From a virus (taxonomy: Duplodnaviria; Caudoviricetes), in IMG/VR virus record IMGVR_UViG_3300037461_000646, positions 1 through 64,000 of that record: a stretch of DNA of 64,000 nt; one strand, written 5' to 3'. The position numbers and the translations under genes are program-made. A model generated the notes under the pieces. It had not been told where the DNA came from, searched no databases, and saw only the letters and a program-made list of their open reading frames with translations. Each line of letters starts with the position of its first letter. The first letter of the stretch is position 1. Shown here in pieces: positions 38,018 through 39,380 of the stretch.

Positions 38018-38440
38018 TCACATTTTTACAATTAGTATGGAATCGTTAGTGGTGGGTTGCCAGTAGTCATAAGTTTGTGGCTCAATCAGAAAGACTCCCT
38101 CTTGGGCCACACAGATATTCAGAGTGTGGGGGGTTTCAACACCTCTGACAATGGGGCCAAAGGCCTCCCCAAACGAAAAATGAAAGTTGTCTTCGGGTGG
38201 CAGATCATCGGCCTCATCGATTCTCGTTCTCTTTATGTAAGCGTTCAACAAAAGAGCGTAATCGTCACAGTCCATCAATTCCCCATTAGACCGCAACTTG
38301 TTTACCCCTGAATCAACAAGAAAGCCCTCTACCTGATTGATAGAAGGCTTCACGTAGATTCGGTCTTGCATCCAAATAAATTGAATATCGGGCCAGATGG
38401 TTCTCAACAGGGTTCGTATGTCACTGGCTGCTATCTGCAT
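38018..38440 (-). CDS. Papain/transglutaminase-like cysteine protease-fold protein (agglutinin C-terminal type)
   Basis: DCDDYA, FGEAFG, HTLN, FLIEPQ: candidate Cys-His-Glu triad. Confidence 0.7.
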   Translation of the reverse strand: MQIAASDIRTLLRTIWPDIQFIWMQDRIYVKPSINQVEGFLVDSGVNKLRSNGELMDCDDYALLLNAYIKRTRIDEADDLPPEDNFHFSFGEAFGPIVRGVETPHTLNICVAQEGVFLIEPQTYDYWQPTTNDSILIVKM

Positions 38441-39380
38441 TTTTCCCCCATTTATCAAGCCATTCATAGATGGTGTACTTCTGCTGTTTTCTGATCAACT
38501 TTCGATGTTCAGAGCACTTGGCCATGACATCGTCCAATATGTTGCGCTTTGTTTGGGGCCGACCCTTGCTGCCCAACATGGCCTTTTCTGCAAACTCTTG
38601 ACCACAGGCACAGAAGTAAGCGATGAAGCGATTGCGAAGAGAGTCATCATAGTTCCAATTATAGCCTCTCTTTTCGCCATGATGAAACAAGGGTTCGTCT
38701 GGGTATATCCATTTCTTCATGCCCATCGTGGCAAGAGCATAGTTGATGAAGTTTTCGCCACCACCGTAAATGCCAAGCTCAACGGGCCAGCCCCCCAGAC
38801 GGTTGTAGACTTCACGAGACATGAGCATTCCACACGTTGACATGCACGGCACCTCATACGGTGACGAACTGTTTCTGAATGTGGTGAACGAATAGTGTAG
38901 CTCATGTGTCTCTGGCACCCAGACCAATTTGTAGATCAGTCTATGATCCTCAAGTATCTTGTACGTGAGGGGCAAGTGCATTGTGCCGTTGAGTTCGTCA
39001 TGGTGCTTCTCATAGAAATTCAACATTCTGACAATGGAAGTTCCAGCAACACAATGCCCGTCCACGAACCACAGATAATCCCCGGTGCTGTTTTGCACAC
39101 CAAGATTTTTTGCTTGCCAGTGTGAAAGCTTATCTTTGTAATGTAGGTATCTAAGCCACTTGTTTCCACGACCAGCACAGGCTTTGACCGCTTCGGCACC
39201 TTTGTCTTCGACTCGGTTTTTTCCATCTACCACCTGTTGTGCAACTTCGTCGCACCAGTTGTTGATAGCCAAAACCTCGTAATCAAAGCCTCCATCTCTC
39301 AAAGCCTGATTCACACTTTGCAACGTGAATAGGATTTGAGGGAACTCATTGCAAAAAGGGATAATCACCGATAGTCGCAT
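38421..39380 (-). CDS. GT-A glycosyltransferase with polypeptide-GalNAc-transferase-like motifs
   Basis: LSVIIPFCNE, QAKNLG...TGDYLWFVDGHC (DxH), PCM..GMLMSR..Y..LGGW...GIYGGGEN. Confidence 0.8.
   Translation of the reverse strand: MRLSVIIPFCNEFPQILFTLQSVNQALRDGGFDYEVLAINNWCDEVAQQVVDGKNRVEDKGAEAVKACAGRGNKWLRYLHYKDKLSHWQAKNLGVQNSTGDYLWFVDGHCVAGTSIVRMLNFYEKHHDELNGTMHLPLTYKILEDHRLIYKLVWVPETHELHYSFTTFRNSSSPYEVPCMSTCGMLMSREVYNRLGGWPVELGIYGGGENFINYALATMGMKKWIYPDEPLFHHGEKRGYNWNYDDSLRNRFIAYFCACGQEFAEKAMLGSKGRPQTKRNILDDVMAKCSEHRKLIRKQQKYTIYEWLDKWGKNADSSQ

Follow-up and report, generated by a model that had tools for sequence, protein, structure and literature searches.

The stretch of viral DNA analyzed here (Duplodnaviria; Caudoviricetes), referred to as the window, spans 64,000 nucleotides and makes up the initial 64 kb of an IMG/VR record (IMGVR_UViG_3300037461_000646) that is complete, with a length of 89,207 bp and direct terminal repeats. 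It carries on its minus strand (38421–39380) an uninterrupted open reading frame (ORF), free of internal stop codons, for a GT-A glycosyltransferase of 319 amino acids that resembles, by fold and by sequence profile, the catalytic domain of the polypeptide GalNAc-transferases (ppGalNAc-Ts; family GT27), the animal enzymes that transfer α-GalNAc from UDP-GalNAc to Ser/Thr of polypeptides and thereby start mucin-type O-glycosylation. This enzyme very probably takes part in the glycosylation of Ser and Thr residues of virion proteins, and we estimate the probability that it is the enzyme initiating this pathway at roughly 55%. The distribution of its gene among phages suggests that the carriers sugar-coat their own particles. 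That a large, almost exclusively phage-borne and lectin-less enzyme family performs true mucin-type initiation, i.e., O-links an N-acetylhexosamine (HexNAc) or a hexose (Hex) to the poly-Thr/Ser segments of capsid, tail-tube and giant fibre proteins, is a further-reaching proposal that we put forward tentatively.

Relationship of the Phage Enzyme to Polypeptide GalNAc-Transferases

The motifs that a first-pass annotation of this DNA had quoted for the enzyme (WQAKNLGVQNSTGDYLWFVDGHCVAG and EVPCMSTCGMLMSREVYNRLGGWPVELGIYGGGENFINY) are all present in the 319-amino-acid translation, and so are the strings QAKNLG...TGDYLWFVDGHC and, further downstream, PCMSTCGMLMSR...LGGWPVELGIYGGGENF in which it had recognized ppGalNAc-T-like features. 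Numbered along the protein, the key elements are D107-x-H109, Y205-GGG-E209 and H233-H234. In an alignment of 37 homologues with 51–87% identity (alignment A1), the residues F105, D107, H109, W198, P199, G207, G208, E209, H233, H234, G235, R238 and Y240 are invariant; in a second alignment of 19 sequences that reaches members of only 21–30% identity (alignment A3), H109, G207, E209 and H233 are invariant as well, and D107 is nearly so. The motifs are hence not a product of chance, and because both alignments retain the D-x-H motif, the GGE loop and the downstream His, we regard them as the catalytic core of the family.

An AlphaFold2 model of the enzyme (pLDDT 93.2; pTM 0.91) was compared with the Protein Data Bank (PDB) using Foldseek, and all 50 matches listed are ppGalNAc-Ts, the best with an E-value of 2.9e-15 and with TMq values of up to 0.73. 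The structural match is specific to GT27, which is set apart by a gap of about 6 Z units and by about 50 additional aligned residues. The comparison of GT27 with generic GT2 enzymes that the first-pass annotation had named as a check of its proposal has thus turned out in favor of GT27, and ordinary glycan-extending GT2 enzymes are not the best structural matches. At the sequence level, a phmmer search of the PDB with the single protein yielded ppGalNAc-T10 as the sole match (E 0.031), while a profile of the family retrieved T10 with an E-value of 2.6e-4, with Toxoplasma GalNAc-T3 as well as T7, T9, T4 and T12 also among the best matches; in the same profile search, the matches to TarP, TarS and heparosan synthase are confined to the N-terminal nucleotide-binding part. 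In hidden Markov model alignments, the D-x-H motif of the phage enzyme coincides with that of GT27 and its GGE loop with WGGE, and H233 aligns with the His in the GHVFR segment, the part of GT27 enzymes that holds the conserved Mn-binding His (PMC6994419).

Several hallmarks of GT27 can consequently be recognized in the phage protein by alignment: a GT-A catalytic domain composed of subdomain A (GT1 motif) and subdomain B (Gal/GalNAc-T motif), and a D-x-H Mn2+ motif with a conserved downstream His (D107-G-H109 and H233). The loop reads Y205-G-G-G-E209-N, so that Tyr replaces the Trp of the GT27 WGGE(N) sequence and one extra Gly is present, with the GGE core remaining invariant. The C-terminal ricin-type lectin domain of GT27 is absent from the AlphaFold2 model and from the Pfam scans, in agreement with what the earlier annotation had stated; the GT-A domain occupies all 319 residues. 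A type II membrane anchor and a stem region are likewise missing. In the AlphaFold2 model, the N-terminus enters the first β-strand already at residue 3, and no N-terminal hydrophobic segment precedes it; the protein is therefore predicted to lack a signal peptide as well as a membrane anchor. A search for longer forms of the family recovered two fusions of a GT2 domain with a further glycosyltransferase domain, and no lectin fusions. A truncated ppGalNAc-T without its lectin domain retains activity on peptides (PMC6994419), and the missing lectin domain is for this reason no argument against peptide transfer by the phage enzyme.

Among Pfam models, PF00535 alone matches the enzyme (E 1e-10; 42.2 bits versus a cut-off of 23.3). 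The N-terminal nucleotide-binding half covered by this match is shared with generic GT2 enzymes of the GT-A type (SpsA, TarS/TarP, K4CP). Subdomain A of GT27 enzymes falls within the PF00535 model as well, and the match does not, therefore, discriminate between GT2 and GT27. A scan against PHROGs gave no match, and one against NCBIfam gave nothing except a PgfS match far below threshold. The Pfam model Glyco_transf_7C is faintly detected in three of the 37 homologues and exceeds its cut-off in one fused family member. PF11397, which we take to be the model of CAZy family GT60 (polypeptide α-GlcNAc transferases), is not among the 17 families matched by any of the 37 homologues at E-values of up to 10, and no GT60 structure was recognized among the structural matches of the enzyme. 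Taken together, the fold and the profile data support its description as a distant, lectin-less homologue of the GT27 catalytic domain. Given an identity of 12–18% to GT27 enzymes in the structural alignments, the YGGGE instead of the WGGE loop, and the lack of lectin domain, stem and anchor, we file it outside GT27 in the strict sense; it probably represents a new, GT27-like family.

Ser/Thr Tails and Tracts and Their Association with the Glycosyltransferase Gene

Putative acceptor sites are abundant among the virion proteins encoded by the window, all on the minus strand. The major capsid protein (61726–63051; phrog_29, E 6e-49) ends in 18 residues that form a Ser/Thr tail (61729–61782), and a tail-tube-like protein of 208 amino acids (57420–58046), whose gene lies upstream of two small ORFs followed by the tape measure gene (51918–56606), ends in TTWTTTTTTTTA (57423–57458). 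Both peptides that had been suggested as acceptors at the outset, ETSTTTSSSSSSTTTTTA from the capsid protein and the tail-tube-like terminus just given, are hence genuine C-termini of virion-module proteins. The Atlas places the 208-amino-acid protein with tail tube proteins (PF25681; score 0.96), in agreement with synteny, a lead to its identity as the tail tube. A third virion-module protein (221 amino acids; 60197–60862) terminates in a Thr/Ser run of 14 residues. Much longer Ser/Thr segments are found in a mucin-like protein of 1796 amino acids (25143–30533), which consists of 64% Ser plus Thr with about 1250 residues in Ser/Thr-only tracts, in an 889-amino-acid protein (31255–33924; 61% Ser plus Thr) with a globular C-terminal part, and in a tail-associated protein of 1781 amino acids (45826–51171) that is encoded just downstream of the tape measure gene and whose Ser/Thr tract, about 170 residues long, is located close to the C-terminus. 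In the tails and tracts, Thr and Ser are encoded by a mixture of all their codons; this use of synonymous codons side by side indicates that selection acts on the peptide, and it rules out DNA slippage as the source of these segments. An 849-amino-acid ORF on the plus strand (26341–28890) was rejected as a gene, since it mirrors in antisense the Ser/Thr-encoding repeats within the 1796-amino-acid gene; the GC skew of this region is +0.32 on the plus strand.

The GT27-like gene and such acceptor-like segments occur together in phages well beyond the window. A Ser/Thr-rich ORF is found within 10 kb of the gene in 39 of 73 loci, nearly always on the same strand, and the near-complete carrier genomes possess Ser/Thr tails or tracts without exception (10 of 10). 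Eight of the nine near-complete carriers other than the window's genome lack the window's capsid type at E ≤ 1e-5, and the remaining one (G028) shows a weak match of 25% identity; across all carrier records searched, this capsid type is present in only seven of 30. Two to seven ORFs ending in poly-Thr/Ser are encoded by each of eight of these nine genomes, and the ninth (G025; 59% GC) encodes, 3–7 kb upstream of the family gene, two proteins whose Ser/Thr tracts span about 135 and 190 residues. In two further carriers (G059, a complete genome of 45 kb, and G048), an ORF with a Ser/Thr tract is located 2–3 kb from the family gene.

The capsid protein itself follows the same pattern. All homologues with at least about 56% identity carry a Ser/Thr tail of 18–24 residues, of which the composition is kept while the sequence varies, and a sister group (at most 58% identity) ends directly after a conserved ...RDA-Y-L-V core and has no tail. 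The GT27-like gene is present in every complete genome with a tailed capsid protein and absent from the four complete genomes with a tail-less one (G033–G036). A contig with a tailed capsid protein and no GT27-like match (G031) was rejected as an exception to this rule, as it is a 91% complete linear contig in which the cassette is cut by the contig end.

A sample drawn in the reverse direction consisted of 26 viral contigs of at least 30 kb that were picked only by the presence of an (ACN)12 run. Four of them contain close members of the glycosyltransferase family (E < 1e-84) and two contain distant ones (1e-20 to 1e-25). A pattern scan of 2.9 million IMG/VR contigs found the gene in only 69 loci, and the enrichment among the (ACN)12-selected contigs is therefore at least several hundred-fold. 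Comparative genomics in both directions thus strongly supports a link between the GT27-like gene and a system of Ser/Thr-tailed and mucin-like acceptors. The genome encodes both features that characterize virion O-glycosylation, phage-encoded glycosyltransferases and virion proteins with putative acceptor sequences.

Size and Distribution of the Family

A search of 5.8 billion proteins returned 889 relatives of the enzyme from metagenomes, most of them 300–350 amino acids in length. Carrier contigs were recovered from sediment or freshwater samples. When 1.84 billion cluster representatives were searched with a profile, 847 matched with E ≤ 0.001, 121 of these with E ≤ 1e-30, and the best 150 matches listed are family members only. 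Cellular genomes are a different matter: seven family matches were found among 185,579 species genomes, all on contigs of metagenome-assembled genomes (MAGs; L207–L213), four of which had been assigned to Desulfobacteraceae or Deltaproteobacteria bins and two to archaeal bins (Thermoplasmatota, Thorarchaeota). These are probably phage contigs that were binned with the MAGs, and the Desulfobacteraceae/Deltaproteobacteria bins give a weak hint as to the hosts. Among the phages in INPHARED, a single weak relative is present (Tunturiibacter phage Tunturi_4; 21.5% identity), and no cultured carrier phage was found in this collection. Literature searches combining GT27 with phages, or directed at mucin-like phage glycosyltransferases and at bacterial ppGalNAc-T homologues, retrieved no account of a GT27-like enzyme from a phage or a bacterium.

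Some relatives are fused to other domains. A distant member (P0238; L214:1313–2584; E 4e-32) keeps the DAH motif, the GGE loop and the His, carries an N-terminal PqqD/RRE domain, and is encoded next to an OppC-like ABC permease gene on a 3-kb contig. PqqD/RRE domains are peptide-binding modules in the biosynthetic pathways of ribosomally synthesized and post-translationally modified peptides (RiPPs), and the fusion hints at a branch of the family that consists of RiPP-type peptide glycosyltransferases. Three two-domain proteins of 601–740 amino acids (P0127, P0278, P0124) possess a generic GT2 domain ahead of the GT27-like domain, and two of them reach the Glyco_transf_7C model.

Proposed Function and Assignment of the Initiating Step

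We envision the GT27-like enzyme as a soluble cytoplasmic glycosyltransferase of the GT-A type in which, by analogy with GT27, D107/H109 and H233 would bind Mn2+ and the UDP-sugar, with the YGGGE209 loop positioned over the donor. Together with the other enzymes of its gene cassette, it would O-glycosylate the Ser/Thr-only tails of the capsid protein, the tail-tube-like protein and the third virion-module protein, as well as the huge Ser/Thr tracts of the fibre-like proteins. This modification is expected to occur in the infected cell prior to assembly, and its outcome would be a mucin-like glycan coat on the virion. The first sugar would most probably be attached to Ser/Thr by the GT27-like enzyme, and the GT4-like and other enzymes of the cassette would extend and methylate the glycan.

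Our preference for the GT27-like enzyme as the initiator draws in part on genomes in which it is found without a match to the GT4-like competitor. The carrier G025 possesses a GT27-like gene and Ser/Thr tracts, nothing in it matches the GT4-like gene or the other GT-B genes of the window, and the two neighbors scanned beside its family gene are both GT-A enzymes. A match to the GT4-like protein was likewise not found in G059 or in G048, the latter being a fragment of 17% completeness. Among the 26 contigs selected by their (ACN)12 run, the GT4-like gene is present in three versus six for the GT27-like superfamily. The PqqD/RRE fusion of the distant member, as read from its sequence, may be counted for a peptide-acting role of the family as well.

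A number of observations weigh against this assignment. The identity to GT27 enzymes is low, as mentioned above, the E-value of the family profile against the PDB is only 2.6e-4, and the residue that follows E209 (position 210) is variable, being N, Q, H or D among the 37 homologues. Sugars serve as acceptors for GT7 and other GT27 relatives with the same Gal/GalNAc-T motif, and homology of the fold does not, therefore, fix the acceptor of the phage enzyme. The split between tailed and tail-less capsid proteins amounts essentially to one evolutionary event and is, taken alone, weak evidence, and most carrier genomes were chosen through the GT27-like gene itself. Above all, this gene has a near-obligate partner, a gene for a GT4-like glycosyltransferase of the GT-B type (422 amino acids; 42665–43933, minus strand), with which it occurs in 28 of 30 records, in most loci on the same strand and at a distance of 3–8 kb; because of this high frequency, the conserved core of the system has to be viewed as a pair of genes. 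Candidate contigs that carry the GT4-like gene alone are all fragments. GT4 enzymes initiate the glycosylation of Ser in the serine-rich-repeat adhesins of bacteria, and two enzymes of this kind that glycosylate Ser in repeat proteins, GtfA and SdgB, are among the structural matches of the GT4-like protein. The GT4-like enzyme might thus initiate on Ser/Thr in the manner of GtfA, with the GT27-like enzyme attaching its sugar second or later in the growing O-glycan. The genome G036, with one poly-Thr-tailed ORF, Ser/Thr tracts, a distant GT4-like/GT-A fusion and no member of the GT27-like family, fits such a division of labor; G025, where tracts occur next to a GT27-like gene and no GT4-like match was found, does not. 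On balance, we regard the GT4-like enzyme as the main rival for the initiating role and consider initiation by it to be rather unlikely. The fusion protein of G036 is a 649-amino-acid ORF (G036:C1:40076–42022, minus strand) with a distant GT4-like domain at its N-terminus and, in its C-terminal part, an LDQDE motif that by eye suggests a different GT-A domain.

The initiating step could also reside in another enzyme of the cassette, with the GT27-like protein acting as one of several extenders. Candidates for this role are a GT-A-like protein of 241 amino acids that is conserved beside the GT27-like gene in most loci, and a fusion of a GT2 domain with a methyltransferase, a type of protein present in G025 and also, as gp108, in Che8, a phage with experimentally described glycosylation. 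The 241-amino-acid protein shows no sequence match to peptide-acting enzymes and is absent from G012, G020 and G025, which nevertheless possess tails or tracts, and this scenario is accordingly, in our judgement, quite improbable. The smallest chance of all is given to the idea that the GT27-like enzyme modifies a glycan of the host envelope, a lipid carrier or the phage DNA, and that its association with Ser/Thr segments is coincidental. TarP and TarS are among its weaker matches, and many phage GT2 enzymes modify the O-antigen or the teichoic acids of their hosts. However, the translation of the GT27-like protein shows no evident transmembrane segment, its gene is located inside the virion module and co-oriented with the genes for the Ser/Thr tracts, contigs selected by poly-Thr runs alone are strongly enriched for the family, and cellular genomes almost entirely lack it. 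Overall, it is in our judgement somewhat more likely than not that the GT27-like enzyme, rather than its GT4-like partner or another glycosyltransferase of the cassette, would set the first sugar.

Genome Organization and the Glycosylation Cassette

The window derives from a siphovirus-like phage. Its first 24 kb (plus strand) constitute the replication module with genes for a DnaB-like helicase, DNA polymerase, clamp, clamp loader, single-stranded DNA-binding protein (SSB) and a UvsX-like recombinase. The virion module, encoded on the minus strand, runs from 63 kb to 25 kb and includes the GT27-like gene; its order, starting from 63 kb, is major capsid protein, tape measure protein, the 1781-amino-acid tail-associated protein, the glycosylation cassette, and then further structural-looking proteins along with the two giant Ser/Thr-rich proteins.

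The cassette extends from 45813 down to 38421, with all genes on the minus strand. At its head is a radical S-adenosylmethionine (SAM)/SPASM enzyme (313 amino acids; 44872–45813) that could modify the sugar or the peptide itself; homologues are present in several related cassettes (L004, L006, L013, L014, L064). It is followed by a Glyco_trans_1_2-like protein (315 amino acids; 43973–44920), the GT4-like enzyme, a second GT-B glycosyltransferase (377 amino acids; 41541–42674) for which Glycos_transf_1 is slightly below the Pfam cut-off, a methyltransferase-like protein conserved in the cassette (199 amino acids; 40955–41554), the conserved 241-amino-acid protein (40239–40964), a SAM-dependent methyltransferase (281 amino acids; 39392–40237), and finally the GT27-like enzyme. 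The 241-amino-acid protein has no Pfam match, and the Atlas groups it near viral clusters; one of these is in part PF00535, which offers a lead to a second GT-A enzyme. PDB sequence searches with the other glycosyltransferases of the cassette gave nothing informative. The next ORF downstream of the GT27-like gene (38018–38467, minus strand; 149 amino acids) has no family match and, when read from its first ATG, overlaps the last 47 nucleotides of that gene; a second Met nine codons further in reduces the overlap to 20 nucleotides. Several unrelated proteins of this phage share basic C-termini of the type KKxL(V/I)(V/I)RK, for example PKKLIRRKKK at the end of the SAM-dependent methyltransferase (39392–39440, minus strand), and likewise the products of the genomic regions 64942–66612, 86645–87010 and 88536–88820.

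Comparison with Known Glycosylation Systems

If our assignment is correct, the consequences reach beyond this particular phage. A small soluble peptide O-glycosyltransferase would become available for glycoengineering, poly-Thr/Ser tails combined with the GT27-like gene would serve as a signature by which glycan-coated phages can be predicted in metagenomes, and a testable case would be at hand for the effects of a glycan coat on the stability, adsorption or recognition of phages. The enzyme would furthermore add fresh evidence on how GT27-type enzymes originated. Should mucin-type initiation prove true as well, many environmental phages that have not been cultured would carry a coat of self-made mucin, and an enzymology that is regarded as a eukaryotic hallmark would have an old viral or prokaryotic branch.

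Freeman et al. reportedly described the virion O-glycosylation of the mycobacteriophages Che8, Corndog and Myrna in 2023, and to our knowledge only a few mycobacteriophages have been experimentally shown to glycosylate their virions in this way. In these three phages, subunits of the capsid and of the tail tube are modified by glycosyltransferases that the phages themselves encode, according to a summary of that work (PMC12363180). The Che8 system and that of the window have in common that a methyltransferase domain accompanies the glycosyltransferases. However, Che8 employs a GT2+Methyltransf_24 fusion together with a GT2-like and a GT25 protein, whereas the window possesses a cassette with GT27-like and GT4-like enzymes, and hhalign detects no relation between Che8 gp109 or gp110 and the GT27-like family (probability < 1%). 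The capsid and tail proteins of Che8 end in a short ...GS, in contrast to the poly-Thr/Ser tails of 12–20 residues typical of the window, and the giant mucin-like proteins present in the window's genome have no counterpart in Che8. Fusions of GT2 and SAM-methyltransferase domains are found at L062:8845–10026 (plus strand) in the high-GC carrier G025 and in Che8 gp108 (L206:2172–3347). These data suggest that methylated sugars are a common theme of phage virion glycans. The system described here differs from that of the mycobacteriophages and is widespread, as judged from 69 IMG/VR loci and 847 cluster representatives, and its putative acceptor sequences can be recognized readily.

The systems that glycosylate serine-rich-repeat adhesins of Gram-positive bacteria (GtfA/GtfB followed by GT-A extenders; SdgA/SdgB) resemble that of the window in their very long Ser-rich tracts and in a cassette that mixes GT-B (GT4) and GT-A enzymes, and they operate in the cytoplasm, as we propose for the phage cassette. 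The ppGalNAc-Ts of family GT27 (human GalNAc-T1, -T2 and -T10, Toxoplasma GalNAc-T3) possess an anchor, a stem and a ricin-type lectin domain, all three of which the phage enzyme lacks, and they are Golgi-resident proteins with a WGGE loop, whereas the enzyme studied here is phage-encoded, presumably cytoplasmic, and has a YGGGE loop. It is, in our view, best described as a new, phage-borne and lectin-less variant of the GT27-type catalytic domain that is embedded in a new variant of phage virion glycosylation.

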